A stretch of 64,000 nucleotides of DNA from Candidatus Obscuribacterales bacterium (lineage in GTDB: Bacteria; Cyanobacteriota; Vampirovibrionia; Obscuribacterales; Obscuribacteraceae), in the NCBI GenBank assembly GCA_965228855.1, contig CBDDIJ010000002.1, forward strand, positions 1,728,001-1,792,000, given 5' to 3'. Below the pieces are notes generated by a model that saw only the letters and a program-made list of their open reading frames with translations, did not search any database and had not been told where the DNA came from. Shown piece by piece: positions 21,774-64,000 of this stretch. The first letter of the stretch is position 1. Each line of letters starts with the position of its first letter. The position numbers and the translations under genes were made by a program.

Positions 21774-22492
21774 CTGAAAGGAAACTTACGTATAGCCTCA
21801 TGCTAAGCGGGTTTACAGTGATTGTCAATGGGCGGATTTAGCAACAGGCTGACGTCGGACAGTCGTTCGTTCTCGGGTGAAATTTAGAATGATAACGAAA
21901 CCAATTCCAGGGTGAATCAGGGTATCGGTAGTGTTTTTGCGTTCAGTTTTAAGCTGCCTGTGAAAGCCTTGGCACCGGATATGGTATCTCACCGGATTTT
22001 ATGTGATCAATCATGGACTCGCTTCATTTCCGCAACAGACTTTTTCAAGACAGGGCAGGCGCAAAGATAAAGATGGTGGCAATAACCGCACAGCCAGACA
22101 TCGAATTTCATTTCGTGCTACGGTGTGCGGTTGGTTTGCGCAAGAGGAGCCCAATCGCGGTCATCTTGCAACATCTTCGCTTAAACTTGCCGGTCGCCTG
22201 GGCAGGTCGGACGGAAGTCTGTGGGCGCCTGTAAAACAATGAGCGATTTAATGCCGTATTTTGCCAATTTGTTGAAAGGAAGTAAGCGTTTCTGTTACTA
22301 TTTTCCGGTTGCTGGTACTTCCTGGCGTATCCATGCACAGCTGGTTTTTTTTGCGACTTTCGAGTCGACTTTAGGCGACAATACTACACCTTTCATTCGG
22401 CCTTGCGTCCGCATTGGTCGTGTTCGCTGGCGGCCAGTTTGTTTGTTTTGTGTTTAATTCAGTGCGGCTGCAGACCGCAAAAGGAGTCGTGT

Positions 22493-47600: not shown

Positions 47601-48965
47601 AACGTGGACGCCAAATTCGTTGAGGATTCGCGCAAGAAATTGGATGCTGGCTATAAACTTCTGGTGAGCTTCTGGTGCCCGGACCGCGGCTACGAGTGGT
47701 TCGGTGAGAATCCGGGTCACGAGGCGCTGACCGCGTTTGGGCTGATGCACTTCAATGATATGAAGAAGGTGCGCGAAGTTGACAACGATATGATAGCGAC
47801 GACTCAGACTTGGCTCATGAAGCAGAAAGATGGACAGGGCGGTTTCAATCGGAAACGTCGCAGTCTGCACACGTGGGTTGAGGACAAGGAGTGCTCGGAC
47901 GGTTACATTGTGTGGGCGCTGCTCGAGTGCGGCCAGCCGGTCGCGTCGTTGAAGGATGAAATTGCGCGGCTGAAGAAGCAAGCTGAGTCGAGCAAGAATT
48001 CGTATGTGGTGGCACTGGCTGCGAATGCGTTGTACTTGGCTGGAGACAAAGCGGCTGCGAAAACTTTGATGGACCGTCTAGCTGCTAAACAGAAAACTGA
48101 TGGTAGCGTTGACGGTATCACGCAGAGCATCGTCGGTAGTGGCGGTGAGGCGTTGCAAGTTGAGGGAACGTCGCTCGCGACGCTTGCCTGGCTTCGTGAT
48201 AATGCCTACGCCGGAAACGTCAGCAAGAGCATCAAGTTCCTCGCGGACTCGTGCAAAGCCGGACGTTATGGTTCGACCCAAGCGACGGTGCTGGCGTTGC
48301 GATCTATTTTAGAGTACGACAAGAGTTGTGCGAAGAAACGCGAATTCGGAACCATCAGCGTATTTGTTGACGATAAACAAGTTGGCGAGCCGGTTGCGTT
48401 TAGTGACACCGCTCAAGATGTGCTCACTTTCCCAGACTTGGTCGGTTCGTTGACGCCAGGCGAGCATAAGGTGGAGTTGCGCATGAGCGGTGGCAATACG
48501 ATGCCGTACTCCGTCGCGTTAAACTACAGCGCGCTGACGCCGCAGTCGTCGGACGCATGCGCGGTCGATATCGCGGTAAAGATGTCGGATACGAAACTGT
48601 CTGAAGGCGAAGCTGCGGAAGCGTTGGTAACCGTGGAGAATAAGACTAAAGAGCTGATACCGAACCCGGTGGCGATTGTCGGCGTTCCTGGTGGTATGGA
48701 AGTTCGGCATGACCAGCTTAAGGAGTTGGTGAAAAAGGGCAAGATTGACGCCTATGAAGTGCGCGGCCGCGAGGTTGTGCTTTATTGGCGTGGTATCGCC
48801 GGTAATGCGGCGATGGAAGTGCCGGTGAGCTTGATTGCGGCGGTGCCAGGTACGTATACTGCGCCGGCGAGCCGGGCGTATCTGTATTACACGGATGAGC
48901 ACAAGTGTTGGATTGATGGAGCGAAGGTTGAGATTACGCCGAAAGTGCAGGTGGCAGCTCGTTGA
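44640..48965 (+). CDS. Alpha-2-macroglobulin family thioester protein
   Basis: STDKPIYRAG, DFTETLYW, LSDNVTTFR, thioester PSGCFEQ, STQAT, RAYLYY. Confidence 0.92.
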   Translation: MSDGRFTRVVSASLACSVLLVNLGSATPSCAKSSKQSKASKASKGAKIIETKVEETAKPAEPVPVKKVMATSYSLGGTDRYLTMLSTDKPIYRAGDKLYLRGVMLNSLNKQPFPRFSDLRYGGHIEIRGPKGEIIARDNAQIQDSVWSYIWDVPRGALGGEYTAYLSFAQAPFAPSERKFDVRAFRNTRLKSQITFVRDGYAPGEKVSAVLDVKRAEGGIPASAKVMVTATIDGVAMNCGTASVDSNGLCQVSFDLPHEIERGEGTLALVISDGGVVETASKTIPILLKTVDLQMYPEGGDLLAGHKNRVYIEASQTNGKPADLVGKIMLAGTNGEAPREVAEVKTEHEGRGRFEFTPEAGKKYYLAVSQPSGIAKTFPLPEAKLTGATITTDQDVFRREQPIVLHTDSSEKTYKVSLYKREVKIADYKVDLQNQAKDGQQRVQFNLSDDIDGVLTATIWSADGEPLAERLIFRETSSPINISITPAKKSYIPGETAELTVKATDENGKPLSTVVGLTVSDETVIEMIDKREQSPNLEVMYFLEPEVKNLADARVYMDAKNPKAPLATDLLLGTQGWRRFALLDAKDFVAKNGSKAKRVLGGCLGRPIGSRIGEDGIPLQPSTYQRGQLQTLNSIDKYTFFPSAPELSVEQMRVPEEIGRVEGPRDVNLFQVEPTVLDERHFTTGRAERHQKTSPTLPEGAPIPDSDGQITLHGYNLAAGATGRSVYVREYSHKARPGRQPGDRNDFTETLYWNSGVRTDSKTGEAKVKFALSDNVTTFRVSADAFSESGGIGSTSLGLQSQQPFYTEAKLPLEVTAGDKILIPVNFVNTTDGALSSPVATIDIKGQMTQSSFKKFDTALGAGERARLIETLTIGDKIGDSTITVSTKAGDFRDKVTRNLKVTSNGFPREQGFAGIIEGGKSVVKTINVPSFVPGSLTVKGVAYPSPLGNLTEALQRLIQEPSGCFEQTSSTSYPLTMAQQYFLTHQNVDAKFVEDSRKKLDAGYKLLVSFWCPDRGYEWFGENPGHEALTAFGLMHFNDMKKVREVDNDMIATTQTWLMKQKDGQGGFNRKRRSLHTWVEDKECSDGYIVWALLECGQPVASLKDEIARLKKQAESSKNSYVVALAANALYLAGDKAAAKTLMDRLAAKQKTDGSVDGITQSIVGSGGEALQVEGTSLATLAWLRDNAYAGNVSKSIKFLADSCKAGRYGSTQATVLALRSILEYDKSCAKKREFGTISVFVDDKQVGEPVAFSDTAQDVLTFPDLVGSLTPGEHKVELRMSGGNTMPYSVALNYSALTPQSSDACAVDIAVKMSDTKLSEGEAAEALVTVENKTKELIPNPVAIVGVPGGMEVRHDQLKELVKKGKIDAYEVRGREVVLYWRGIAGNAAMEVPVSLIAAVPGTYTAPASRAYLYYTDEHKCWIDGAKVEITPKVQVAAR

Positions 48966-48989
48966 TCGATAATCGTTAGGAGACGTACC

Positions 48990-49337
48990 ATGCAACTGAG
49001 GAAGAGTGCGCGGGCTTTTTGTAAATTAAGCATGATATGTGAGTGCTGCTTGGTTCTTGGTTTGGTAGCGACCTTCACCTGCAGTTGGTCCTCAGCGCCG
49101 GGTACACCGGCAGAGTTATTGCTTCGTTGTATCGACGGACACGAAAACGTTTTTCAAGTTGAGAAGTACCGCCTGGGAATTACGGAGAATGGGTTGAATG
49201 TCCCTTTACCGAATTCTCTGGACGGGGCTTCGGTACCGAAGATCATGCTGAAGTTCGATGGCGCCGGCGAAGTCAAGTCCGTTGGAAACTTTTCCTCTTC
49301 AAGCGTCCATCGAATATCCTTGACGGTGAACAGCTGA
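48990..49337 (+). CDS. Hypothetical small protein
   Basis: AGGAG RBS; hydrophobic N-terminus. Confidence 0.45.
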   Translation: MQLRKSARAFCKLSMICECCLVLGLVATFTCSWSSAPGTPAELLLRCIDGHENVFQVEKYRLGITENGLNVPLPNSLDGASVPKIMLKFDGAGEVKSVGNFSSSSVHRISLTVNS

Positions 49338-49416
49338 GTCTGTGTTACGACCGACGCCTTTGAATGAACCAGGAAATTTAAAAGTAAATGTCTAGCGTTG
49401 AAGGAAGTACATTTGT

Positions 49417-50352
49417 ATGCCTATAGCGAATGCAGGAACACTTATCGAGAATGTTGTTTTAATCGAGTCGCTTCGAGTTCTGTGCGATGAGGCCGTCAGT
49501 GACTCGTCCTCAATCGAATTTATAAATAGTTTTACAATGGCTCCTCGGAGCCCGTGGACTGAACGATTGTATGCTGGTCCATTGAAGCTGGCTCGTCGTC
49601 AGATGATCGAAGCAAACTTTGATTCCACAGATGTGTCTGGTGAATTTTGTCAAGTGTATGCGCGGAGCTGTCTTGCTTTGTCCTATGAGGGACCAAGTGG
49701 TGCTCTCTTAGCAGCGATTTTATTGAGTCTGAAAAAAAAGCGGGCCCGCTTTTGGCTTAACGATAGCGGATTTTATCAATCATCCGCGAACACCGGAAAT
49801 CACAATATTGACTCAATCGCTGCTGAAGTATTGCCAAACGACCTTCAACCGCGGCTGGACTTGGTGTGTTCGGCGACTCCTTATCCGACAAGCCTCGTTG
49901 AGTTAAAACTTGAGCTTTCAAAATGGAGACAAAGTTCCAATGGTCGGCAGTTTAGAATAGGCTACTTGGACCCCAACAGATATTGTGCCGGTGGTGCCCG
50001 ACATACGGCTGCGACCTCTTCAGCAGACCACTGTGAGTGGCTGGAGATGCTAAATGTCGATTTACCGTCAGTAGTTATGTCCGTGCATTTTTCAGCAAAT
50101 TGCAATCAGCCGCTGTTAAGAAAGGAACTTCAGTATCTATACAAAGACGCCTCGGAAAGAGGCTACGTGTCAAACACGTTTTCAAACAGCTATTTAACTA
50201 CGACAATCTCGATTAACTCAAATGACTCGAAGCTGAGCTCACTGGAAATCATGAACCGAGCTTGCTCGAATATTCTCAGCGCCTGGGACCGTTGGCGAAC
50301 CGTTAGCGGACAAGGAAAAATGGCTTTGACCTCTAGGCGATACGATACTTAG
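49417..50352 (+). CDS. Hypothetical protein, possibly a divergent methyltransferase fold
   Basis: 311-aa ORF; N-terminal NAG and internal GYLDP loosely recall RlmJ-like enzymes. Confidence 0.55.
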   Translation: MPIANAGTLIENVVLIESLRVLCDEAVSDSSSIEFINSFTMAPRSPWTERLYAGPLKLARRQMIEANFDSTDVSGEFCQVYARSCLALSYEGPSGALLAAILLSLKKKRARFWLNDSGFYQSSANTGNHNIDSIAAEVLPNDLQPRLDLVCSATPYPTSLVELKLELSKWRQSSNGRQFRIGYLDPNRYCAGGARHTAATSSADHCEWLEMLNVDLPSVVMSVHFSANCNQPLLRKELQYLYKDASERGYVSNTFSNSYLTTTISINSNDSKLSSLEIMNRACSNILSAWDRWRTVSGQGKMALTSRRYDT

Positions 50353-50385
50353 CTTTCTGTTGCCACCGCATGTAGCGCCAGAACC

Positions 50386-51861
50386 TTATTCGCTGTCGTT
50401 AATCAATGACAGCGCTTCGTTCGCAACCTCTTGAACCGCAGGATCGGTATAGTCTAAATCAGATATGAACTTCCGGCATTTGTCTTCAGACGTTTTTGCC
50501 GCCACTAGAAGCGTAGATATCGCCTGCTGCTTTTTGCCCTGCTTTGCAAATACGACCGCGAGATTTCCCCAAGCTATAGTCTTCATCGGTTCAAGTCTGA
50601 TCGCTTGCTGGAAGTGTCGTTGCGCATCCTCGTACATAAGCGCGTTAAGTTCTGCTAAACCCAAATTGTTGAAATATTTTGGATTCGTCGAATTTAGTTT
50701 CACAGCTTCTTTGAGCAGAGCAACTGCCTTAATGTTGTTACCCTTGCGAAGCTCTCCAAGACCTTTATCATTGGCGCTAATCGACTCTGGTGTGTTCGGC
50801 AAATTTCGAGGTTGCCGAGTCAAAAGGGTATTCAAACCGGATGAGACAGCAGCATCTTTGGAATCCATTTGGTCTTTTATGATTGCATCAATTTGATTGT
50901 ATTCCGCGGAAATGTTCGTGGTGCTAGCGGCGCTGATGTTGGCACTGGCATTCTCTTCTGAAAGTGCATCCGCAGACGATGAGCTATCGAGCGTTGAAGT
51001 ATCGTCGGGCGGAGATGGAATCGATGCTGAATCTGATCTCTGATTATAGGAGCTAATTTCCTCATCGCCATCCCAGTCATGCCCTTCAGGGCTTGCCGTT
51101 TGATGCTCTGCTGTTGGCGATGCGGGCTTAGTATTTTCGGAGTATTTTGTGATAAGTGTTGCTACTGCGGCTGTGCCCATACCGATAAAACAGAAGGCTG
51201 CAACGATGATGATTGCGGTGGTGTAATCAGTGTTCGAAGGTAATTCGATCTGACCTCTGAAATCTGCTGACCTCCCGTAATAATCATCTCCAAGTTGCTG
51301 AAGTAGCGCCAATCGAGCCTTGTCGTTGGAATTGCAGACTTGAGATGGCAACAGGAACAGGTCCATAAAAGATCCGAGGAAAAGAACGATGCCAAAAAAG
51401 ATCGCTGCAGGAATGCCGACGATTGTTAGCACTAGCAGCCAGCTGCCGAGTCCGCCAGCTAGGTAGGCTAAACCCCAACCGGTCTCTCGAATATAAAACT
51501 TGTGGCCTCCAACGAACCAAGTCAGCAGCAAAAGAAGATAAGCTACTCCGACACCTCGGGTGATGCGCGTACTTTCGGCTTGATAGGCTAGTGCGTACTC
51601 AGTCGGTAGGAGTGATACGGCTCTCGCGAAATTTCGATTCTGAATCGCGGAGTTAAATTGAATTTGCTTAGATTGGTCTTCCTTTTGAACGCTCGTGGTC
51701 TCTTCAGCAAATAGTTTGATGTCCGATAGTCTGGGCTCTACAGGTCTTGCAATGTTTTGCTCGCGATCACAATAGCGGCAAACCTTCGCGTTTTTTCTGA
51801 TCGGTTCCGCGCAGAAGTTGCACTCCTTGTGGTCGTCATCGGTTTGCTGTTTATCTTCCAT
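50386..51861 (-). CDS. Zinc-ribbon + TM2 + TPR membrane protein
   Basis: CNFC...CRYC; AYLLLLL...GGHKFY (TM2); Ser-rich linker; C-terminal TPRs. Confidence 0.8.
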   Translation of the reverse strand: MEDKQQTDDDHKECNFCAEPIRKNAKVCRYCDREQNIARPVEPRLSDIKLFAEETTSVQKEDQSKQIQFNSAIQNRNFARAVSLLPTEYALAYQAESTRITRGVGVAYLLLLLTWFVGGHKFYIRETGWGLAYLAGGLGSWLLVLTIVGIPAAIFFGIVLFLGSFMDLFLLPSQVCNSNDKARLALLQQLGDDYYGRSADFRGQIELPSNTDYTTAIIIVAAFCFIGMGTAAVATLITKYSENTKPASPTAEHQTASPEGHDWDGDEEISSYNQRSDSASIPSPPDDTSTLDSSSSADALSEENASANISAASTTNISAEYNQIDAIIKDQMDSKDAAVSSGLNTLLTRQPRNLPNTPESISANDKGLGELRKGNNIKAVALLKEAVKLNSTNPKYFNNLGLAELNALMYEDAQRHFQQAIRLEPMKTIAWGNLAVVFAKQGKKQQAISTLLVAAKTSEDKCRKFISDLDYTDPAVQEVANEALSLINDSE

Positions 51862-52253
51862 TAACGCTCCGAGTCTTCTCGCGAGTATGCTGCCTCGCAG
51901 CCTGGCAATATCGGTTGTACTAAATAATGACTACAGAAGTCACTTTGTAGGAAGCGCCAGATCTTTGTTCCACTCTTTCAGCCTCTCTGAACTCGTTCTT
52001 ACGAATGAGTTTTAAAACCTTTTACCGTGGAATGCGTCGATTTAGCGACCAGCAAAATTAGACGCACTCTTGAAGTATCGCAGAAATTAATCGTCTGATA
52101 CCACAGCCTGGTCTAGAGTTTATCTTCGACGGAAGACAAAAAAACAACCCGATTGGGTGATATGTTTTTGTTGCGCGTTGTGGTAGATCAATTACTTGGC
52201 AGTTCGCGTCGGAGTAATTTAGAACCTTCGATCGCTTAACAACGTGCCTTTGT

Positions 52254-53273
52254 GTGGAGAAACACATGGGACCGAACAAACAATTCTATTGCACACTGCA
52301 AGGTGTGTCTATCGACGGCGCGTGTCTCGGCGGGTCACCGTTCGGGCAACCAAAATATTTTCGCCGTGATTCAACCTTCGTGCTTATTTTGGCTGTGATG
52401 GCGTTATCGGTTTTCGTGAATGACATAGTCAATTCACCCGCGATGGCCGGTTTTGGTAGAAACGTCCCCGTCGCTTTGGATGTTCAAAACCCTCCGGGCG
52501 ACAACCTCTATTTTACTGTGAAACCGTATATGGTGGCAGTTCGGCAGCGCATTCAGCAGGCTTGGCGACCGAATGTTTTGAGTCCATCTTATCGAACCAA
52601 AATTCAGTTTCAAATAAATCACGAAGGACAGATATTTGCTCCGCAACTCGTTTCATCTTCCGGAAACGAAAAATTCGATCAAAGAGCGATGAGTGCCGTT
52701 CTCGCATGTTCGCCGTTTCAACCTATTCCGATAGAGACGCTGATAATTACAGCAGCATTTGATAATCGCTATCTAACACCGGCCGAGCTTGATCAAAATG
52801 TTCAGCGTTACCGTTTCTTTCGGCAGCAACAGTTGGTGAGGGAGCAGCTACAGCCAACCTACTATCAATCGAACTTAGCGCAGCAAAACAACAGGTACGT
52901 GGAGCAAAATTATGGCGCGCAAATTCCGATATCTTCGAATCGCCAGCCACCGCAAGCTGAGCTGATGGATCCAGCTACCGATGGAGAGCTCAGGGGCGCT
53001 CCTCAGAATAAAGTTGATTCTGTTCCTGACGGTGGTGTGTATCAACCCGGTCGTGGCACCTCAGACGAAGCAAATAAATTCGCTTATTCAGAGCCGAAGA
53101 CAAAATCTGAGCTAGTAGCTCTCTCTCCAGATGAGCTAGAAAATTACAAAACCTGGTTCAACAACGAATGGTCGAAAGAGCCCCCGGAAAGACGCTTTTA
53201 TTTTTTGACTGGCTTGAAGTATTCGTCGACACCAGTGAAGCGAGTTGTCGTGAAAGGAAGAAAGCCAAAGTGA
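52254..53273 (+). CDS. TonB C-terminal domain protein
   Basis: PYM..VRQRIQQAW, FQINHEG, SSGNEKFDQRA, PFQP. Start uncertain. Confidence 0.7.
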   Translation: MEKHMGPNKQFYCTLQGVSIDGACLGGSPFGQPKYFRRDSTFVLILAVMALSVFVNDIVNSPAMAGFGRNVPVALDVQNPPGDNLYFTVKPYMVAVRQRIQQAWRPNVLSPSYRTKIQFQINHEGQIFAPQLVSSSGNEKFDQRAMSAVLACSPFQPIPIETLIITAAFDNRYLTPAELDQNVQRYRFFRQQQLVREQLQPTYYQSNLAQQNNRYVEQNYGAQIPISSNRQPPQAELMDPATDGELRGAPQNKVDSVPDGGVYQPGRGTSDEANKFAYSEPKTKSELVALSPDELENYKTWFNNEWSKEPPERRFYFLTGLKYSSTPVKRVVVKGRKPK

Positions 53274-54097
53274 AGTCGACTAATGCCTCGCAGAAATTTT
53301 TAAATGTCTTTATTGTAAGTTCGATCTATTCAATGTGCTGTGCCCCTGCACTGTCACAAATGATGCTTACGGGAGGAATCGAGCATGCTGAAAAACTCAC
53401 TCCTGCTGCGAATGAGTTCGCTCCCGGTAAACCGCTCGCGGACCCGAAGCAAGTTGTGAATAAAACAGCAGGTGAGTGGTACACCATTCCCAATTGGTTG
53501 ACGGGGACTTGGAGCACGATTCAGCAAGTCAAAATCAAGTCCTTCAATGAGGAGACCGGAAATTCCGACGAGAAACCTGTAGTAGAACGTGGTCGAGAGA
53601 AAGAAACTTTCGGCTTTCAGCTGGACAAACAACATAACTATTGGACCAGCGGAAAAAGCGTTGAGCCGATTAAATCCAAGATCGAAAAGTCGATCGTTGA
53701 TGATGACGGCAAAACAAAAATCGTCACGAAGATTGAGTACAAGTTTCGAAGAAATGAGATTGTCTCATGCGAGGGAAACAAGGTTGTTTTGAAAACGACC
53801 GATGTCGTAGTGTCTACGAACCCGGACACCAAGAGAATTGAGGACACGAATCAAGTTGAATCAATTCGGACGTTCGTTCTGATGGACGACAAACTGTTGG
53901 CGGTTCGATCAGATGTCCAGCACTATGATCGCTTGGGCTTCCCGAAGGAGCGCAGCGTTCTCGCGGAGTTTCGAGCGAAGGATGCTGACTTCAAAGTCGT
54001 AAACGAAGTTGATGGCGTTAGTTTGTTTGCGTCATTCAAAGATTTTCTTCAAAAGCATGGCCAGTTAAACCTTGCTCCGGAGAAAGTTAACCAATGA
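53270..54097 (+). CDS. Hypothetical secreted protein
   Basis: GTG at 53270 overlaps the upstream TGA; signal peptide; WYTIPNWLTGTW. Confidence 0.7.
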   Translation: MKSTNASQKFLNVFIVSSIYSMCCAPALSQMMLTGGIEHAEKLTPAANEFAPGKPLADPKQVVNKTAGEWYTIPNWLTGTWSTIQQVKIKSFNEETGNSDEKPVVERGREKETFGFQLDKQHNYWTSGKSVEPIKSKIEKSIVDDDGKTKIVTKIEYKFRRNEIVSCEGNKVVLKTTDVVVSTNPDTKRIEDTNQVESIRTFVLMDDKLLAVRSDVQHYDRLGFPKERSVLAEFRAKDADFKVVNEVDGVSLFASFKDFLQKHGQLNLAPEKVNQ

Positions 54098-55086
54098 ATG
54101 TTTTCAAAGTAACTCTAAGTCAAGCAGTGACGCTTGCGGCGTTAACTCTGTTCGTTTTTGGAGGAAGCGCATTTGCGAAGATTGATTCGATTGCCGAAGC
54201 GTATGCCAGCCAGGCAAGTAGAAGTTTGGGGCGCGGAGAAGTCTGGAATGCAATTAGACTTTATCAACAAGCTCTCGAACAGGAAATGAAGGACGACAAC
54301 GACGAGCTCTATATCGCGAAACTTCACAACGATTTGGGTGAATGCTACCGTCGGCTCGCCGATGATAAATATCAAAGGCAGATGTCCGGATTGAGTCCTG
54401 ATGACTGCTTAGCCAATGCCGAAAATTATTTGAAACAAGCGCTTGAGATAAAGGAAGCGACTTCCCGCGATAGAACTGATTTTTTATATATCGCTCTAAG
54501 TTTGGAGAATCTGGCGCTGGTATATTCCGCCCGAAACAATTTGTCCGAGGCAGAGGCGCTTTTGCGGAAAGCGCTGTACATCCGGGAAACCAAAGAGGGG
54601 CCGGATAGTCAAAATAGCGCGAGCACGCATTTGTATCTTGGCGACATTTTGACCAAAAATTCTTATTTCCACGAAGCTGAAAAGAATTACTCCAAAGCGA
54701 TTGCGATATACAGAAAGAAGGAAGCGGCCGATGCGCCGATTGTAGGTGTTTGCAATCAACGGCTGGCAGTGATGTTTTACCAATGGAACAAACTTGCTCG
54801 TGCTGGAGAACAATACGATTTAGCGCTTAACTCATTTAAAAAACATTTGCCATCAACGAGTAGAAATTTAGAGAAATTGAAGGCGGAGTTACCAAACATC
54901 GGGATCGAATCATACGGGCAAGCTCTTCGGGAGCTCAAGCAGAATTCGGATAAGAAGCCGGTGGTTCCTAGGGATGTGCAGATCTCGCTGATGAAGAACA
55001 TTCGAGCAGCTGCTCGCAGAACGGATAAAGCTGAGGACGTGAAGTACTTTGATAAAAAGCTCAGAGAATTGGGAGTTCAAAGCTGA
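54094..55086 (+). CDS. Secreted TPR-repeat protein
   Basis: ATGA overlap; NLALVY...EAEALLRKALYIRE-type TPRs. Confidence 0.82.
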   Translation: MNVFKVTLSQAVTLAALTLFVFGGSAFAKIDSIAEAYASQASRSLGRGEVWNAIRLYQQALEQEMKDDNDELYIAKLHNDLGECYRRLADDKYQRQMSGLSPDDCLANAENYLKQALEIKEATSRDRTDFLYIALSLENLALVYSARNNLSEAEALLRKALYIRETKEGPDSQNSASTHLYLGDILTKNSYFHEAEKNYSKAIAIYRKKEAADAPIVGVCNQRLAVMFYQWNKLARAGEQYDLALNSFKKHLPSTSRNLEKLKAELPNIGIESYGQALRELKQNSDKKPVVPRDVQISLMKNIRAAARRTDKAEDVKYFDKKLRELGVQS

Positions 55087-56027
55087 TGAATGAGCGCGTC
55101 AAAATCTTATTGCTTGTTGGAATGTTGGCAGTTTTTCTTATGGTGCTGTTCCCTCCATGGCAAGGCGCGTCCTACTCGATGATATTTTCGCCACCATCGC
55201 CGAGCAGTGAAATCGATTTCAATCGGCTTGGAATTCAGTTTGTACTGGTTGGTATCGCATGTGGTGCGCTTTGGCTCGCTTTGCCATCTGCGGATAACGG
55301 CTTGAGCGAACCTGATTCGACCGATTCGTCGAAGTCCAAGTTTGGAAAACACAGAGTCTTGATAGTTTCGACGGTCATTATGCTGTCAATCATTCTGCCG
55401 ATCGCATGGGGCTTAGTTCAGGACTATCAAAAACGTGTCGCTGCGGAGAGAGCTGCTAAGGAGGCTCAGCGACGATTCGAACTAGCAGCGCAGCTCGAGA
55501 GGCAGAGGCTAAAACTTTTAGCAGAAGAGGGCTATCGAAGGGACGAAGAAAACCGCCGCATAGCTCAGGCGAAAGTGGAATTTCTAGCCGAGCAGCAAAG
55601 GTTGCGCGAGGAACAAGCACAGGCTGAGGCTCAGGAACGTGAGGCTCAAATGCAGCAGCAAGTAAGAGCTCGCAGAGCCCAACTTGCGAAACTAGCCACG
55701 CCAAAAACGTGGAAAGTTGGTGGGCGGCAGATTGCACGAGTAAAACCGATCTTGCACACCTATTGGAAGGACGGACAACTTTACTATTGTCTGGAATTGA
55801 AGGGTGCGGCTGATGCGCTGGAATATGCGATGAGCACAAATCCTTCTGTGACTGTTTCACTTCAGCAAGCGGGCGGAGTGAGTCAATTTTCCTTCGCCTT
55901 TCCTCTGCATGCGATGGGACAAAAGAGATCGAAATCTGGTGCGATGGTTGGACTAATTAGTGCGCCAGCAAACGCCGTTCTCGCAGAAGAAATTTACAAC
56001 GAAATTCTTCAAGCGAAAATGGACTAA
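55086..56027 (+). CDS. Hypothetical membrane protein with coiled coil
   Basis: TGATG overlap; FPPW N-terminal TM pair, third TM, Q/E/R/A-rich coiled coil. Confidence 0.7.
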   Translation: MNERVKILLLVGMLAVFLMVLFPPWQGASYSMIFSPPSPSSEIDFNRLGIQFVLVGIACGALWLALPSADNGLSEPDSTDSSKSKFGKHRVLIVSTVIMLSIILPIAWGLVQDYQKRVAAERAAKEAQRRFELAAQLERQRLKLLAEEGYRRDEENRRIAQAKVEFLAEQQRLREEQAQAEAQEREAQMQQQVRARRAQLAKLATPKTWKVGGRQIARVKPILHTYWKDGQLYYCLELKGAADALEYAMSTNPSVTVSLQQAGGVSQFSFAFPLHAMGQKRSKSGAMVGLISAPANAVLAEEIYNEILQAKMD

Positions 56028-56052
56028 CGCACCCCTTATACACCACACCGTA

Positions 56053-57876
56053 ATGTCAGACGAAAAATCATTTATCGATATATGGAGCTCCAGAAAGCTT
56101 TTGCTGACTTGGAAGTCCATTCGCCGCGATTTAAAATCGGTTGAGGCTCGCGACACTTTGGATTTCTTAGAGTTTGATTTTTTCTTGGATGAAAATATAA
56201 AGGTGTTGCGGAAGTCAATTCTCGCTGGGACCTATCAACCGACCGTACCGAATTTGTTTGAATTAGCAAAGGGCAGAGGGTCGTTTCGCACTATTTCGCT
56301 GCTCATACCGGAGGACATTCTGGTTTTTAAGCACTTAGTTGACCACGTCTACTCAAAAGCTAGTAGAGCTGAGCCGCGAGGAGTGTTCTTTTCGCGGTCA
56401 CAGAAGCCAGTTCCGGTCGGTCCAACGCTGAACTCGTTGAATTCCGTTGAAGCTGTCGCGTATGAGTCCGGCTGGAACTTGTGGGTCCGGTACCAGCAGT
56501 ACCGGACGCGGACCATGATAAATGCCATCCGGCCGATTCTTGTGGTTACAGACATCACAAATTTTTTTGAGTCCATTCAGCATGACATGCTTTTGGAATA
56601 TCTTTCTCCGTTTTCTCTGCCACGAAAGGCTGTTGGATTATTGGGTCGGTTTCTCGAAATCTTTAAACCTGCATGTGGATTTTCCCCAACTCCGAGAGTC
56701 GGCCTGGTTGTTGACCAGCATTACTGCTCCAGGGCGTTGGGTCACATCTTCCTGTTTGAGCATGATCTTCGGCTTTCCAAAGCCGTTGGGCTCGATCATT
56801 ATGTCCGTTGGATGGATGACCAGAATGTTGCCGTCGGATCCTTAACAGAAGCCCGTCGACTAGGGAGGACGCTAACCGAATCATTATCCCAACAACGCCT
56901 CGTATTGAACGCCGCCAAGACAAAATTTTTAAATCCGTCGGAGATAGTTCAACACTTTCATCTCGATGCCAATGACGAACTCGACAAGCTCGATGCTTCG
57001 CTCAAAAGTGGCCAACCAAGCAAAGCCGATAGGTTGCAGCTGTACCTATCCTGGCGGCAAGCTAGGAAATTGAGAGGAATTGGCAATTGGGACAAGGTCG
57101 TAAAAAGATTTTACGGCTATGCTGGAAGATTGCGTATGAGCTTTCTGAGACCTATGGCATTCAATCATTTGGTTCAATTTCCATTGCAAGCAGACCGCAT
57201 CTTTGACTACTTCATAGCGCTTCGAGATTTCGACGGTTTACTGGAATTGATGAGTAACTATGTGTCGACCGGAGAAAGTATCTACGAAAGTGTTGAGACC
57301 GCTTTCTTCGAGATCTTGCTTTGCAATAATATTCCCAATAGTTATCGCTCCATCTACAGGAATTTTGCTCTCCAGTGGCTTCAAAATCCGACCATGGGCT
57401 CTGGTCGACCACACTCGAGGGGCTCAGCGGCGTTATGTCTTTTCTGGCTCGGCGACAAAAGGTCCGCCACCTCAATTCGGAAAGTCCTCTTGCAAAATAT
57501 AAATCTTTATCCAGGCACGACTCTTCGCAGCTTGCTAGCTTCCTACATAGCGTTGGACCCCTCCAAGATCAACGACGGTGTAGCTATCGCGGCAAGTCAT
57601 GGTGGTTCCGAACTCGCCCTACTTGCCAAGTTTGTTCAGCGTTTGCAGAATGACTTGAATGTTTCCTGCTCACTTCCAGCTGTTGATCAACAGTTTCGAT
57701 ATATGAATCAGTCCAAGCTTTACGAAGCTCGAACGTGGATTCGCTTAGAAATTTTGGCATTGGCTGGTTCACCAGACGTGCTCAAATGGCTGCGTCTTCA
57801 AAAGAAAAGGATTTTGAAAAAAACATTAGGCGATTGTGAGATGCGAGTGTTTAAACGGTGGCAAGGGCGCGTGTGA
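56053..57876 (+). CDS. Reverse transcriptase, UG/Abi-like, with alpha-helical C-terminal extension
   Basis: AKGRGSFRTI, VVTDITNFFESIQH, GLVVDQHYCSRALGHIFL, YVRWMDD (WMDD at 56809-56820), LVLNAAKT; ~300-aa helical tail. Likely start ATG 56053 (607 aa). Confidence 0.9.
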   Translation: MSDEKSFIDIWSSRKLLLTWKSIRRDLKSVEARDTLDFLEFDFFLDENIKVLRKSILAGTYQPTVPNLFELAKGRGSFRTISLLIPEDILVFKHLVDHVYSKASRAEPRGVFFSRSQKPVPVGPTLNSLNSVEAVAYESGWNLWVRYQQYRTRTMINAIRPILVVTDITNFFESIQHDMLLEYLSPFSLPRKAVGLLGRFLEIFKPACGFSPTPRVGLVVDQHYCSRALGHIFLFEHDLRLSKAVGLDHYVRWMDDQNVAVGSLTEARRLGRTLTESLSQQRLVLNAAKTKFLNPSEIVQHFHLDANDELDKLDASLKSGQPSKADRLQLYLSWRQARKLRGIGNWDKVVKRFYGYAGRLRMSFLRPMAFNHLVQFPLQADRIFDYFIALRDFDGLLELMSNYVSTGESIYESVETAFFEILLCNNIPNSYRSIYRNFALQWLQNPTMGSGRPHSRGSAALCLFWLGDKRSATSIRKVLLQNINLYPGTTLRSLLASYIALDPSKINDGVAIAASHGGSELALLAKFVQRLQNDLNVSCSLPAVDQQFRYMNQSKLYEARTWIRLEILALAGSPDVLKWLRLQKKRILKKTLGDCEMRVFKRWQGRV

Positions 57877-58290
57877 GCAATGTTATGCGTTTGCGCTGTG
57901 CTAGTCGAGGGGCTCTGGAAGATGACTTTGGTTACACCTATTTGGCAAAGAATTCCAGCACTGACTGTCTCCGCAATGCTAACATGCGAAATGGTACTAA
58001 ATAGGGTGGCATTTCAAAATAGGCGTAAACGGCAGGATACTTCGATTCTGGTGTCGCGATGCGGGGGGCAGAACCAGTCGACCAAAATTCTTTTGATTGA
58101 CAGTGCTCAATCAGCTATTCGATGATAAGAGGCTCGTTTGCTTTTTGCCAAAAATGTGTCTGCGTTAAAATCGCCAACCGCATTGGATAATGGTAATCAG
58201 AGTTTTTTACCCTTGCATAATGGTGCAAGCCCGTGTTTTTGAACGCTGAGCCAGCACCTTCTTCGCGCAAATATTGCTGCGACGCCCAAT
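57877..58290 (+). ncRNA. Candidate structured ncRNA downstream of the RT
   Basis: Consecutive stem-loops found by eye at 57877-57987, 57988-58015, 58042-58081, 58094-58113, 58212-58229, 58263-58282; no convincing CDS. Confidence 0.4.
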
Positions 58291-58320
58291 CCTCGTGCTT
58301 TTAAAGTGAGTGTCTCGTCA

Positions 58321-59814
58321 TCACCGCGTGTAGGCCTTCGTGCCGCTAGCAAGATTGTTCGCCGTTGAGCTGCTGCCGTCAGCACCATACCAGGCCGTTC
58401 TCATCAAGTTGGTTGGATTTTTTGTTGAAAAGCTAAAGTGATACTTATACGCCTCGATTGGAAGTACGACGACGGTCCCTTCACCTTTACCCTTTCGCTG
58501 GAAGTGCACGAAACCGCTGACCGAGTTTCCGGGTTTGATTGTGTTGCCTTTCAGTGCCTCACGGATTATTTCTGCGCCGTTCGCTTGAGCGTTTGCTATC
58601 GATGCCTGTGAATTTGCGCGCGTAATCGCAGCTTGCTGAGCCGCACGCGCTTGCGCTGCATAATCAGGCGAGCTGATGGTTGTAGTTCCGCTTCCGTAAT
58701 AGGTTCCGTATCCGCCGCGTCCGTAAAAACTGCCACTGGTGTTTGTGTAGGCGTACGTGTTGACTCTCTGCATGGCGGCGCCAGCTTGCCCCAGTGCACT
58801 GCCGAAGTTCGCCCAAGCGGCTCCCGTTCTAGCGCTTCGCTCGAGCTTATTCGCGATTAGATACGGATCTTCATATTTGAGTTCGCGCTTTGATTTTTTT
58901 CCGACTAAACCAGCGGTGAATTTGCTTGGATCGATTTCGACAGTTTTGTCGCCATCGTTTCGGATCGAAATCAACACTTTTGTTTTGCGGTCGGTGTCGA
59001 AAAGCGATGCCGAAATCCGCAGACTGGCACCACGGATGGTTTCAACGTACACGCCGTCTGTTATATCCTTTTCGCAGTCTGGCTGGTCTTCAAGCCAGAA
59101 GAAAGAATTTGGATTAGGTTTAACTTCCGCAGTCAAATGTCCAGCGATCATTATCGTTGTTGGAGCGACTTCTTGCCGCGCCTCGACTTCCAATTTAAAC
59201 TCAGGCGGAAGCGCAACTTGATCTGCTTTTTCTTGATGAATCTCGCAAACCAAGTTACCTAATTCGTCTTGAACAGGAGGCTTCGCAGAGGACGAAGGGT
59301 TCAGCTCCGTCGGGCTTGCTTTTGCAATTGCAGATGGTGGTATTGTGTCTGGTGGCGTAAGCGAAGTCGCGGACGCGACAGGAACAGCAGCAGTTGTAGC
59401 CGCGCGCCCTGCTGGTGTCGTTGAAGTAGTTTGCAGCTTTGCCAAATTTGCTGCTATTTGTTTGGTTCGCATTCCTAGTGGGTCGTCATCTGGCATTGAG
59501 GCGCTGCACAGAGCTAATGCTTGGACACAAAAGGTGTTGGCCTTCTCCAGCGCGTTCATGCGAATTGCGGTATCGGCGAGATTATTCAGCGCTACGATCT
59601 TTAATCGCTCGCTTTTTCCAGACTCGTCGCACTCTGCTAGCGCGGTTTCAAACATCCTGATCGCGCGATTAAAATTGTTATTGGCTCGTGCCTGAAATCC
59701 TTCTCTTGTTGCCGCATCGTATAGCGACTCGGCCCTGCTGGGCTGCGCGAATGAAGCAGCCGCGAACACTGCTGCGACACTAACAAAGGTTTTTGCACTG
59801 CACTTTCTCAACAT
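58321..59814 (-). CDS. Secreted protein with N-terminal TPRs and unknown C-terminal domain
   Basis: Signal peptide from ATG 59814, TPR-like helices, Pro/Thr linker, Gly/Tyr-rich insert. Confidence 0.7.
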   Translation of the reverse strand: MLRKCSAKTFVSVAAVFAAASFAQPSRAESLYDAATREGFQARANNNFNRAIRMFETALAECDESGKSERLKIVALNNLADTAIRMNALEKANTFCVQALALCSASMPDDDPLGMRTKQIAANLAKLQTTSTTPAGRAATTAAVPVASATSLTPPDTIPPSAIAKASPTELNPSSSAKPPVQDELGNLVCEIHQEKADQVALPPEFKLEVEARQEVAPTTIMIAGHLTAEVKPNPNSFFWLEDQPDCEKDITDGVYVETIRGASLRISASLFDTDRKTKVLISIRNDGDKTVEIDPSKFTAGLVGKKSKRELKYEDPYLIANKLERSARTGAAWANFGSALGQAGAAMQRVNTYAYTNTSGSFYGRGGYGTYYGSGTTTISSPDYAAQARAAQQAAITRANSQASIANAQANGAEIIREALKGNTIKPGNSVSGFVHFQRKGKGEGTVVVLPIEAYKYHFSFSTKNPTNLMRTAWYGADGSSSTANNLASGTKAYTR

Positions 59815-60494
59815 AATTTGTACCGATAGATCGACGCGGCAGAAATCGAACAGTTGTGAAGCCCGGCATCGCAAGCCGAGCGCTTTCCGTTTTCGCTGAA
59901 AGAAACTGCGCGACCGGAAAAGGAGTCGATGCGCATACACCGATTATAGGTTTCGCATTGATCTTTCGAGAATAATTTGAATCTAATGAACGTTGCTAGA
60001 CGAAGAACATATTGAGCTCATGCGCTTGGAGTTGCATTGCCTCAATTCGTTGAACAAATTCATCAGCCGTTTGGGTGATATTTATTTGGCGAATTGTATG
60101 TTATTACGTTGAGTTACCGGCAAGTATCACCGGCGTCATACAAACTTTAGAACGAGTATGGAGAGCCGGCTCAGTTGTTCGCCTTGAGGAGACCGACGTA
60201 TTGTTGTGAGTGCTGTGTTCCGCACTTGAGCGCGTGTCGGGCGCTTACTTATGTGCTGATGACAGTTGTTATGCATGCCTCAGAAACTATCGAAATCAAC
60301 ATGTGCATGAACGTCTATGGAGGGGGAATAGTGCATGAGTATCTGTCTAACTTGATTTTCAAATCAAGTAAAGCGGGAACTCCGTTATCAGAGGAGCCAT
60401 TGGTGTTTCTATAGCCTATTAGAAAAAACTAGTAATTGCGCAGATTTGGAACCACACGTTTGAAGCCGTTGGTAAAGGCCAGGAGGGAGAAATT

Positions 60495-62285
60495 TTGTCA
60501 CAAGAAATACCGCAACAACGGGATGGCAAAACTGATACCGATCGATTGCGCGGATTCTGCGAGGAAAATTTCCTTGCTCGTTTACTCTGTGGATACTTTG
60601 GAACACGCACTCGGCGGAGACCGGTTTATGTTGCTACTTTGGAACAGACCATTGCAAGGGCTTGTAAGGAAAAAAATAAGCGACCGCCACGTCACTCCGA
60701 CGTCGTCAAGGCATTAAAAGGAATCGAAAAGATTTCGGCAGAGTCTGGAATTTTTGGAGAGTACGTCGAAGGGCGCCACGGTCACAAGTCGCGATTCGAG
60801 TTTACGGACGAGCTAATTGCGTTTGGTAATTCTCTCGAAAAGGAAGCGATCGACTTTGACTCTGAGCCAGCTGGGATTGTATCGGATGAAGAGGAGTTTG
60901 AACTGAGCGACATCGTCGAGGATGTTGAGGTGGAGCAAAAGTACGCAGGTCAGCAAACGTATCCAGAGCTTGAGACGACGGAAAATGAGCTAGAAGAAAA
61001 CGTTGCTGATGATCGACCCGTAACCAGTCAGCCGAACGATTGGAATGTAGAAACTCTCAGAGGAAAGTTTGATCGCGGATACATCGAATTGCAACCGGAA
61101 TATCAACGTGAATTCGTCTGGGAGTTAAAGCCTGAATTACCTTCCCGTCTAATTGAATCGATTTTACTGGAAATACCAATTCCTCCGATTTACTTCGGAA
61201 AAATTGCGAATGGAAAGCTTGAATTGATCGACGGCCAACAACGTCTGACTACCCTCATCCGTTTCGTGAAAAATGAATTCCAGCTTTCGAAATTGGAACG
61301 TTTAAGCAGTCTTAACGGGAAGATGTTTAGGGACTTGGAAGAGTCCACCCAATCGAAAATTTTGGATACATCAATACGAAGCGTTGTCATCGATACCGGT
61401 ACGAATGACAGTCTTCGCTACGAGATTTTTGAACGATTCAATCGAGGATCGGTTGCGCTGAATCAACAAGAACTTCGAAACTGTGTATACAGAGGAAAAT
61501 TCAATGACTTGCTGCGAAAATTGGTAGAAGATTCGATTTGGAGAAAAGTGAAGGGCACAGACAAGCCAGATCCGCGGTTTATCGAAAGAGAAATGATTCT
61601 CAGACTTTTTGCACTGCATAGCCGGCTCGATTATTTTGCGGGAAATTTGAAACAGTTTTTGAACGACTATATGAAACTGCATGCGCCGAAGGATGAGGAA
61701 ACACTTCTACTTCAAGAAAACATGTTCCACCAAATGATGCAGAATGTCTTTGCAGTTTTTGGCCAAAACTCTGCACGCATATATGTGACAGGAGAGGAAG
61801 GTGGTAAGACGGTCTCTGGAAGCTGGAATCCAAAGTTCTCAATTTCGGCGCTGGACATTCAAGCGTCAGCTCTTTTTGGTCAGCCGCGAGAACGTGTTCA
61901 AGCTGCAGCTGATCAGATTCGCGAAGCGTACATTCTCTTTCTTCTGACAAATGAAAATATCCGTGAAGCTATTTCCGGACACACCGCAAGCACCAAAGCA
62001 ACGAAGTTAAGATGGACAGCCTTTAAAGGACAAGTTGCTGAGATACTTAACGGCACGAAGGTTGAACCCCGCTTCTTCAGCTTCGAATTTAGAAAGGAAC
62101 TCTATGCCAAGGATTCGATGTGTCAGCTGTGTCGAAACCCGATTTACGATTTTGATGAGGCGGCAGTCGATCATATCGTGCCTTACGCGAAATCGGGAAG
62201 GACAATTAGAGAAAACGCGCAGATAGCTCACAGGTGGTGTAATTCGAAAAAATGCAAGAATGATTCAATAAATTTTGAAGCGTAA
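60495..62285 (+). CDS. DUF262 (GmrS/ParB-like) + C-terminal HNH endonuclease (GmrSD-like)
   Basis: QPEYQREFVW, LIESILLEIPIP, LIDGQQRLTT, FERFNRG; CQLC...DHIVP...G....ENAQIAHRWCN; AGGAGG before TTG. Confidence 0.88.
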   Translation: MSQEIPQQRDGKTDTDRLRGFCEENFLARLLCGYFGTRTRRRPVYVATLEQTIARACKEKNKRPPRHSDVVKALKGIEKISAESGIFGEYVEGRHGHKSRFEFTDELIAFGNSLEKEAIDFDSEPAGIVSDEEEFELSDIVEDVEVEQKYAGQQTYPELETTENELEENVADDRPVTSQPNDWNVETLRGKFDRGYIELQPEYQREFVWELKPELPSRLIESILLEIPIPPIYFGKIANGKLELIDGQQRLTTLIRFVKNEFQLSKLERLSSLNGKMFRDLEESTQSKILDTSIRSVVIDTGTNDSLRYEIFERFNRGSVALNQQELRNCVYRGKFNDLLRKLVEDSIWRKVKGTDKPDPRFIEREMILRLFALHSRLDYFAGNLKQFLNDYMKLHAPKDEETLLLQENMFHQMMQNVFAVFGQNSARIYVTGEEGGKTVSGSWNPKFSISALDIQASALFGQPRERVQAAADQIREAYILFLLTNENIREAISGHTASTKATKLRWTAFKGQVAEILNGTKVEPRFFSFEFRKELYAKDSMCQLCRNPIYDFDEAAVDHIVPYAKSGRTIRENAQIAHRWCNSKKCKNDSINFEA

Positions 62286-62334
62286 CGACAAGTAATTGCT
62301 CCAGTCTCAAGATTTCCGATGGTTCATCAAAGAT

Positions 62335-63621
62335 ATGAAAACTAGATCTGAGTTCAGTTTAGCAACTAAACGAAGTTTGGCTAACGCTGCTAACAATCAG
62401 TGCAGTTATCTGAATTGTCCAATGAGAACGAGTGGTCCAGATCTGGGTTCCGGAGGTTCGCTTCGTCTGGGAAAAGCCGCGCATATTTACAGCGCTTCGC
62501 CTTGTGGTCCCCGTGGTCAAGGCGGCTTGAGTCGCGAAGAGTTAAAGCATCATCAAAATGGAATTTGGCTTTGTGCTGATCACGCAACGTTGATAGACGA
62601 GAACAATGGAGTTGGTCATCCGGCAGCAAAGCTATTTAGTTACAAACGATTGCACGAGCACCGTGTGCAGAAGGAAATATTAGGCACTTGCAAAGCAATC
62701 GGCTGGATTGATGAAATCGAGCTCGTTCACACGCCTTTATTCGAGCCAGGTTCGAAAATTCGGCTTGGGAAGTTAAGTTTGGTCTTCGGTAATAATAGTT
62801 TAGGAAAGTCTACTTTAGCGAAATTTCTGGGCAGCTACTTTGACGTCGAAATGCTCGGGCAGTGGAAAAAAGATCAGAATGCTCCCCTGGAATTTAGGAT
62901 GAACTATTACTGCCCCGATCCTGTCACTGTAGGCTTTTCGAAACAAAAAGGCTTGGCTGGGCGATACGAAATCGGAGGCGAATTTTTCTCAAAAAACCCA
63001 GTTCACTGCAGAATAATTTTGGTACCGGAGTTTTCTGAGGATTTTAATGGGTCTGCGATAGCACACATCTCGCACATACTTGATTTACCGGAATGGGAAA
63101 TTGTAAGTCTGATTGAATCAGCAAATTCGTTTCCCTTCTCGAATTTGAAGAATTACCAGGTCTCAAAACCTACAAAGCACGGGAGCTTCGATGAACTTTC
63201 GGTTCATGCCTATGAAGAGAACTTCTCCGTCGTCTTCCGCAATCTCTCGACGACGGAGAAGCAATTTGCAATTATGGATCTTGCAACAGCACTTGCAAGA
63301 AAAACTTCTATTTATCAACCAACTCTCCTTTTTCTTGACTGTAACTTAATAAGCAACGAGGAGGTGTTCAGAAGATTCGAATCGCTTTTGCTCGCGCGAG
63401 AAAACCAATTTCAAACGATTTTGACAGCTCGCTTAAATGGCATCGATCTAGCTGATGTCCAATGGCGAGGCTGGGAGGTTGTTCGCTTGTATCGAGAATC
63501 GTCTGGGTTGACGAAGATATCACAAGACCCCAAGATGAAAGTAGCACCTGAAATACTGAAATTGACTCCCCGCAGGCCGGGTAATTGGAGTGAAAGGAAA
63601 TTGAGTATCGACGACGTTTAG
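62335..63621 (+). CDS. HNH endonuclease fused to an ABC/AAA-like ATPase
   Basis: CSYLNC, AAHIYSASPCGPRG, NGIWLCADHATLID; Walker A GNNSLGKS; LSTTEKQ; LLFLD. Confidence 0.75.
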   Translation: MKTRSEFSLATKRSLANAANNQCSYLNCPMRTSGPDLGSGGSLRLGKAAHIYSASPCGPRGQGGLSREELKHHQNGIWLCADHATLIDENNGVGHPAAKLFSYKRLHEHRVQKEILGTCKAIGWIDEIELVHTPLFEPGSKIRLGKLSLVFGNNSLGKSTLAKFLGSYFDVEMLGQWKKDQNAPLEFRMNYYCPDPVTVGFSKQKGLAGRYEIGGEFFSKNPVHCRIILVPEFSEDFNGSAIAHISHILDLPEWEIVSLIESANSFPFSNLKNYQVSKPTKHGSFDELSVHAYEENFSVVFRNLSTTEKQFAIMDLATALARKTSIYQPTLLFLDCNLISNEEVFRRFESLLLARENQFQTILTARLNGIDLADVQWRGWEVVRLYRESSGLTKISQDPKMKVAPEILKLTPRRPGNWSERKLSIDDV

Positions 63622-63694
63622 AAATTGCGGATTGTGAAAGCTCACATCTGCCCCTTCTTCTACGACGCACAGAGCTAGTTACGTGAGGCGCGCG

Positions 63695-64000
63695 ATGCGA
63701 TACAGGCTGGATGAATTAGGATGGCACCAATTCGAAAATCTATGCCAATCCCTTCTTAAAGCGAAATTTGGTGACGCGATTGAGTCTTGGGGAGGAAGCC
63801 GAGATATAGGCAGAGACGCCTATTGTTCTAGGCCAATTGAGCTGGTCAAGGGAGTGTCTTCCGCTGCTCCGCTCGTGTTTCAAGTGAAGTTTGTTAACGC
63901 TGCGAATTCCGCCGGTGCGAATTGGAATAGCTTATTGAATTCAGCTGTCCGAAAAGAATGTGCCCTGCTCAAAGCGAAAAGGGAACAGCGCATGGTGGAA
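63695..64000 (+). CDS. Mrr-like PD-(D/E)XK restriction endonuclease domain protein (runs off right edge)
   Basis: Not in the ORF track; hand translation MRYRLDELGWHQFENLCQSLL...GGSRDIGRDAY...VFQVKF, open to the window end; GAGG RBS. Confidence 0.8.
   Translation, partial: MRYRLDELGWHQFENLCQSLLKAKFGDAIESWGGSRDIGRDAYCSRPIELVKGVSSAAPLVFQVKFVNAANSAGANWNSLLNSAVRKECALLKAKREQRMVE

Follow-up and report, generated by a model that had tools for sequence, protein, structure and literature searches.

A UG13a-like reverse transcriptase with a helical-repeat tail and a likely role in defence, encoded in a strain-variable segment of a Candidatus Obscuribacterales genome

The stretch of DNA analysed here, hereafter the window, comprises 64,000 nucleotides (nt) of contig CBDDIJ010000002.1 (positions 1,728,001 to 1,792,000 of the forward strand) in the Candidatus Obscuribacterales assembly GCA_965228855.1, and it carries, as a single copy in its genome, the gene of a reverse transcriptase (RT) of 607 amino acids (aa) with the surroundings given in Table 1. 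An initial annotation, made from the sequence by eye, described an atypical defence-type RT with a candidate partner RNA directly downstream. We arrive at a somewhat different reading, to which we assign a probability of roughly 0.6: the window RT would be a stand-alone protein joining an RT to a helical-repeat domain in the manner of DRT4, DRT6 and AbiK, and would act in abortive phage defence through self-primed, template-free production of single-stranded DNA (ssDNA).

Table 1. Features of the window RT, its gene and the surrounding DNA, in window coordinates.
Feature	Coordinates	Strand	Remarks
Strain-variable segment, continuing to ~68200	48956..64000	.	~9.4 kb of other genes in the close relative G407
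TPR protein upstream of the RT gene	54094..55086	+	family scan
313-aa protein, hydrophobic N-terminal segments and charged helical stretch	55086..56027	+	read from sequence
UG13a-like RT, 607 aa	56053..57876	+	RT domain (~aa 1-300) and alpha-helical repeat tail
Tyr137, candidate priming residue (inferred)	56461..56463	+	acidic loop before W144 helix
DITNFF, aa 167-172, first catalytic Asp D167	56551..56568	+	invariant in both family alignments
GLVVDQHYCSR, aa 217-227, in place of the usual G.PQG	56701..56733	+	aligns to group II RT 'vgtpqg'
WMDD, aa 253-256, catalytic D255/D256	56809..56820	+	W in 146/146, M in 145/146 branch members
C-terminal helical-repeat domain (alphaRep-like), aa 304-606	56962..57870	+	DSSP of AlphaFold2 model; whole-chain alignments to DRT4, DRT6, AbiK
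Gap between convergent genes, 444 nt	57877..58320	.	not a supported non-coding RNA
81-aa open reading frame in gap	57880-58125		unsupported
Terminator-like hairpin in gap	58212-58229		
Convergent 539-aa gene	58321..59940	-	weak TPR matches
GmrSD_N (DUF262)-HNH nuclease	60495..62285	+	best PADLOC match NsnA
Protein with N-terminal HNH-like nuclease domain	62296..63621	+	PADLOC endonuclease effector models
Mrr-like/nSTAND3 gene (851 aa), start only	63683..64000	+	runs past the window

The three motifs that had been read in this open reading frame (ORF), DITNFF, GLVVDQHYCSR and WMDD, are all present as claimed. The Pfam model RVT_1 matches aa 155-294 at 33.7 bits, over its cut-off, and the catalytic triad D167, D255 and D256 is intact and invariant in the family alignment. 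In the AlphaFold2 model, which has a predicted local distance difference test score (pLDDT) of 94 with aa 133-138 as the sole stretch under 50, the RT domain is followed by helical repeats, and the helical tail of about 300 aa corresponds to residues 304-606.

A Foldseek search with this model gives whole-length alignments only to class 1 RTs (DRT4, DRT6, AbiK, AbiA and Abi-P2), and two features that mark class 1 of the UG/Abi group, a C-terminal helical repeat domain and three catalytic aspartates, are both found in the window RT, for which the model predicts a class 1 fold. The top whole-chain matches, DRT4 (UG15) and DRT6 (UG12), are like the window RT in being single genes that combine an RT with a helical domain and work without a non-coding RNA (ncRNA), and they differ from it in their YxDD motif, in their shorter tails and in sharing just 11-14% identity. 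AbiK, AbiA and Abi-P2 show the same bilobal arrangement of RT and helical domain and align over 372-458 residues at 9-14% identity, although AbiA carries a HEPN domain that the window RT does not have. DRT2, DRT3, DRT9 and DRT10 share the UG/Abi family and the defence context (Drt3b is also a class 1 enzyme, one that makes a protein-templated product), but they use an ncRNA, whereas at the window RT there is no conserved adjacent ncRNA, second RT or SLATT gene.

PDB searches by sequence return mainly group II RTs, and the ESM Atlas returns generic RT clusters only. The NCBIfam models of named DRTs, AbiA, retrons and group II RTs all place the window RT far under their cut-offs (33 vs 200 for Drt3a, 15 vs 390 for Drt2, 43.6 vs 300 for group II and 16 vs 235 for retron St85). 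Among the flanking ORFs no cas genes were found with Pfam or PADLOC, and Rfam gave no match. The initial annotation is upheld in regarding the protein as a helical-tailed RT of the UG/Abi type and in setting it apart from the RTs of retrons, group II introns, CRISPR systems and diversity-generating retroelements.

While the initial annotation could not name a UG class, the window RT can be placed beside the catalogued group UG13a with a profile and a tree. Its best PADLOC profile is RT_UG13a (PDLC03749; no curated cut-off is given by PADLOC) at 235.5 bits over aa 5-541, with UG21 next at 110.8 bits, and RT_UG13a is the top UG profile in 41 of 41 relatives. The length of 607 aa fits the UG13a profile (589) and not that of UG13b (430). 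As an anchor we used the Azospirillum plasmid protein WP_012976231.1 (P0245), labelled UG13a in File S1 of Mestre et al. (PMC9226505), which has the same layout as the window RT; the group as such also shares with the window RT a size of about 600 aa and a W/F/Y-M-DD motif. Homologue searches yielded 100 proteins and, separately, 775 representatives, 150 of which were among the matches listed. From the collected set 89 sequences were selected for a FastTree phylogeny of the RT domain (289 columns, one UG13a reference, without UG13b, UG19 or UG21 outgroups). The window RT falls in a branch of 32 sequences that carry DDQ (support 0.972), and the core UG13a clade with the reference holds 30 sequences (support 0.953); the node joining the two is weak at 0.639, as compared with the clade criterion of >0.70 used by Mestre et al., and includes a single reference.

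The profile scores separate the two groups as well, with 147-308 bits for nine members of the window branch, approximately 500-750 for the core and 716 for the reference, so that the 235 bits of the window RT lie outside the core range. Core UG13a proteins have DDI and GLPQIxFDAPR, in place of which the window branch has DDQ and the consensus GLPVDExDCSR. Because of the low profile score, the separate branch and the weak joint node, we file the window RT as UG13a-like, in a divergent “WMDDQ/GLPVDE” branch beside core UG13a whose membership in UG13a is tentative. The divergent branch is what is new here, the UG13a group itself being already catalogued; two accessions of the DDQ branch were not found in the available portion of File S1, which lists a dereplicated set. 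The motifs are not atypical within the family: in 185 of 244 collected proteins the first motif to match is WMDD, and 40 aligned homologues all share RWMDDQ, which makes WMDD the family norm. Among 146 branch sequences, no other has the V219 or the Y224 that the window RT carries at the G.PQG site. Most named branch members stem from bins assigned to Acidobacteriota, Planctomycetota and other groups, the closest named locus being that of an Obscuribacterales bin at 56%.

Two further observations concern the wider family. Eighteen sequences (P0145, P0154, P0160, P0163, P0165, P0177 and kin) form another UG13a-like branch, the third (support 0.993), with GLPQExxDxSR and just ~270-360 bits on the UG13a profile, so that the PADLOC model does not span the whole family. 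One homologue, P0112 (795 aa), has an in-frame N-terminal DUF1016_N domain, a putative fusion.

Mestre et al. (2022) defined UG13a and called its defence prediction inconclusive. In a literature search that largely excluded subscription papers, we found no other paper on UG13, UG13a or WMDD in an RT and no experiment on UG13a or the window RT, in keeping with the initial description of the RT as possibly uncharacterised. The genes around homologous RTs make a defence role likely, as had been proposed. PADLOC matches (E<=1e-8) lie directly upstream of the RT gene in 29 of 75 loci and directly downstream in 18 of 69, or on at least one side in 40 of 77; as a rough background from one genome, the left of the window gave 0 matches for 30 ORFs. 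There is no conserved partner gene, and no neighbour family occurs in more than 8 of 79 homologue loci. The immediate neighbours of the window RT itself are not defence genes, and three nuclease-type genes follow from 2.6 kb downstream.

A restriction-modification (R-M), type IIG or DrmMI gene lies immediately upstream of the RT gene, in the same orientation, at 13 of 75 loci (12 of 62 kin clusters), with gaps of -4 to 202 nt. In two Planctomycetota loci (L006:1696-11569 and L007:1778-11612) the RT gene even lies inside a DISARM-like operon, right after DrmMI and followed by DrmA, the latter recognized by PADLOC in L007 and by shared DNA in L006. Such positions, together with the report that the DNA mimic Gam can trigger DRT7 (10.64898/2026.02.16.706125), would suit an RT that, placed last in type I, IIG and DISARM operons, serves as a back-up or guard and is triggered once phage anti-restriction proteins or DNA mimics have put these systems out of action. 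We consider this quite unlikely, as the partner systems are of unrelated types and none is adjacent at most loci, including the window and L001. Operon tails are also the usual insertion spots in defence islands. Two separate details of these loci may be recorded: a 550-aa N-terminal fusion of the RT in L086 was rejected, its frame overlapping the upstream IIG gene and giving no family match, and in L011 and L019 a tRNA-like sequence, seen by eye, lies on the opposite strand at most ~150 nt past the RT stop, which fits the end of an island.

The proposed partner RNA had two points in its favor, namely the 444-nt stretch free of genes after the window RT and the precedent of DRT3, in which a class 1 RT is accompanied by a downstream ncRNA (PMC9226505). 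The gap had been called hairpin-rich, a description that folding does not bear out: its energy of -133.8 kcal/mol compares with -127.7 +/- 6.6 for shuffled sequences (z of -0.93, with 17 of 100 shuffles folding as well), among 28 windows of 120 nt slid along both strands the strongest has a z of -1.85, and there is one terminator-like hairpin. Across 55500-60600 terminator-like sites number 4 as compared with 6.6 in shuffles, so there is no enrichment. At E<=1 the gap gives no Rfam match, and apart from a single match of 19 nt its sequence does not recur in the genome; a repeat search and blastn of the flanks likewise turned up no partner ncRNA.

For comparison between loci we collected 44 RT loci from genomes and 80 from metagenomes, removed one duplicate, and kept 88 intact RT genes including that of the window, or 79 after dereplication at 95%; a pair of 300-nt flanks was counted as aligned at a score of at least 36. 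Downstream DNA aligns for 3 of the 15 pairs whose RTs are 80-95% identical and for none of the 481 at 50-80% (0/45 at 70-80%, 0/62 at 60-70% and 0/374 at 50-60%), as opposed to 19/19, 58/59, 49/68 and 69/424 in the same four bins for the last 300 coding nt. Of the three positives, one reflects a shared stretch of the following gene's coding sequence; the others, in very close kin, span 44-58 nt close to the stop codon. The window gap scores at most 23 with any homologue flank, and upstream flanks are likewise unconserved. There is also little room for an RNA at many loci, as the next ORF of at least 100 aa starts within 60 nt of the RT stop in 16 of 70 (median 132). Locus L159/L160, from the same host family, carries a frameshifted RT of 52-54% identity and retains the upstream TPR gene, and there an ORF begins right at the stop or no more than 57 nt from it.

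The pairwise test is informative for close pairs alone, as it misses four DRT3 control loci too (scores of 17-27, the two plasmid ones being 37-41% identical to the query RT); few of the loci come from the nearest sub-branch of the window RT. The k-mer and folding readouts did detect these controls. In the window family no 6-, 7- or 8-mer rises above the shuffle maximum, be it in the 72 downstream flanks or the 73 upstream ones; ACACAC occurs in 4 of 4 DRT3 loci (2 of 72 in the window family), and first-window folding z values of -2.8, -2.5, -3.1 and -0.1 for DRT3 compare with a family median of -0.45 (block shuffles). The initial annotation had itself named the lack of a common downstream region among homologues as evidence against its proposal, and since the homologues share none, the partner-RNA model fails; an RT-ncRNA module of the DRT3 kind, with the RNA encoded directly downstream, appears to us extremely improbable.

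The stand-alone reading, modeled on DRT4, DRT6 and AbiK, requires a primer within the protein. AbiK primes on Y44 in its fingers loop and DRT4 on a loop Tyr, and the spacing of the DRT4 residues Y125 and D240 is near that of Y137 and D255 in the window RT (spacing compared, not superposed). In the Tyr137 column, 127 of 146 branch members have Y and the other 19 have S, while in the wide family Y is found in 72 of 92; the 11-residue loop around it contains Tyr in 74 of 92 wide-family sequences and otherwise Ser in 17, or one of the two in 91 of 92. No Tyr is invariant across the wide family, and Y386, present in 85 of 92, is an alternative. Tyr137, which lies in the one low-confidence loop of the model, is nonetheless the predicted best priming candidate. 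Judging from spacing, W144, Y147 and Y150 together with W253 may match Y142, Y145 and Y245 of AbiK, which stack on its product.

By analogy with AbiK (PMC9508834), DRT4 and DRT6 (PMC12783706; 10.64898/2026.10.27.754916), DRT7 (10.64898/2026.02.16.706125) and DRT3b (PMC13174585; reviewed in PMC13213688), we infer the following mechanism. The window RT would assemble as a trimer or hexamer, as characterised class 1 RTs do, prime on a side chain of its own, predicted to be Tyr137, so as to give protein-linked DNA, and make ssDNA without an RNA template. Activation would come about when a phage DNA-binding protein or a shift in dNTPs protects or displaces this product, whose altered fate would kill the infected cell and stop the phage by abortive infection.

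Template-free synthesis is the step in this scheme that an RNA supplied in trans (from the host, the phage or the mRNA of the RT itself) would replace. Such an RNA would be invisible to flank tests, the RT0-RT2 region of group II RTs is kept in the window RT, and its core superposes best on group II RTs. Against these points, the helical domain of AbiK stands in for the template strand (PMC9508834) and an acidic motif replaces the usual PQG in the window RT, so we regard copying of such an RNA as very improbable. The DNA product could also be more specific than in AbiK, since for DRT3b (PMC13174585) and DRT7 (10.64898/2026.02.16.706125) a defined DNA templated by protein alone is described. 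The WMDDQ/GLPVDE branch would then be an unrecognised DRT type, with an active site rebuilt by Trp for Tyr, an acidic PVDE for PQG and a near-invariant C-S-R and Gln, that makes a protein-templated defined DNA and acts as an abortive guard of R-M and DISARM operons by sensing anti-restriction proteins. As a whole this is a doubtful, rather speculative proposal. Class 1 RTs have nevertheless repeatedly given new DNA-writing chemistry (random, homopolymer and protein-templated repeat products), and an active site rebuilt at both PQG and YxDD is a reasonable place to seek another DNA product. For UG13a, the branch contributes contextual evidence of defence, in the form of a directly adjacent defence gene at roughly half of the loci, together with a structure predicted with confidence and specific residues to mutate.

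Several findings weigh against the stand-alone defence reading. The window RT is altered at 7 of 71 near-invariant columns (the median in the branch is 2), P219V and D224Y among them, so this copy may be weakened by its departures from consensus. Homologous RT genes are split by insertions of ~1.2-1.4 kb in L010:4476-7788 and L042:4433-7656, and the loci found frameshifted or interrupted, which besides these two include L004, L021, L022, L036, L044, L054 and L159/L160, suggest frequent decay. Furthermore, 37 of 77 loci have no directly adjacent PADLOC match. The window copy might thus be weakened or inactive, or the family might have a role other than defence, such as DNA repair, and be carried passively in variable islands. 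This seems unlikely to us, albeit deserving of some weight, because the reading frame, the three catalytic aspartates and W144, K73, R79, K289 and R352 are all kept. Costly defence genes also typically decay often. With the partner RNA that drove the initial interest set aside, the window RT remains a real and fair experimental target.

Synteny with the close relative G407 (96-97% nt identity) is lost at ~48955 and regained at ~68200-68800, so the RT gene lies mid-way in a variable segment of ~19 kb. The nuclease-rich island suggested initially is borne out by the nuclease genes downstream, but the RT is not at its start. The RT was not found in 40 relatives searched, and of 106 further genomes from the order 2 were found to have it. 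No relatives were found in viral contigs, and plasmid matches, on 7 plasmids, are distant ones only (<30% identity). Of the control systems, DRT3 occurs in 2 of 401 genomes and DRT9 in 1 of 401, neither occurs in viral contigs, and a plasmid match to DNA upstream of the DRT9 gene has no RT beside it. The window DNA from 48000 to 64000 is letter-identical to contigs of two public runs, which are possibly the source of the same DNA. Upstream, the 313-aa protein ends 25 nt before the RT gene and has neither a family match nor a homologue beside the RT at other loci, and a homologue of the TPR protein (30% identity) sits two genes upstream of the RT in L160.

In G407 the same slot (L149:4444-13349) holds other cargo, including a PIN_8 protein, which makes the site after the large gene at 44640-48965 a swap hotspot. 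On its left the variable segment is delimited by the 3' end of this gene, whose 1441-aa product we take to resemble alpha-2-macroglobulin and of which an internal piece of ~55 aa recurs three times on contig C3. A 311-aa orphan (49417-50352) without a match in Pfam, PADLOC or NCBIfam lies at the segment's left edge, and farther left a 2934-aa ORF (22403-31207) has no match in PADLOC. Approximately 22-54 kb to the right of the window, at contig positions 1814197-1845797, is an integrated element of ~31.5 kb with a tyrosine integrase, bounded by a partial tRNA-Met repeat and the full tRNA-Met, that carries a type I R-M cluster with an extra methylase-specificity fusion gene.
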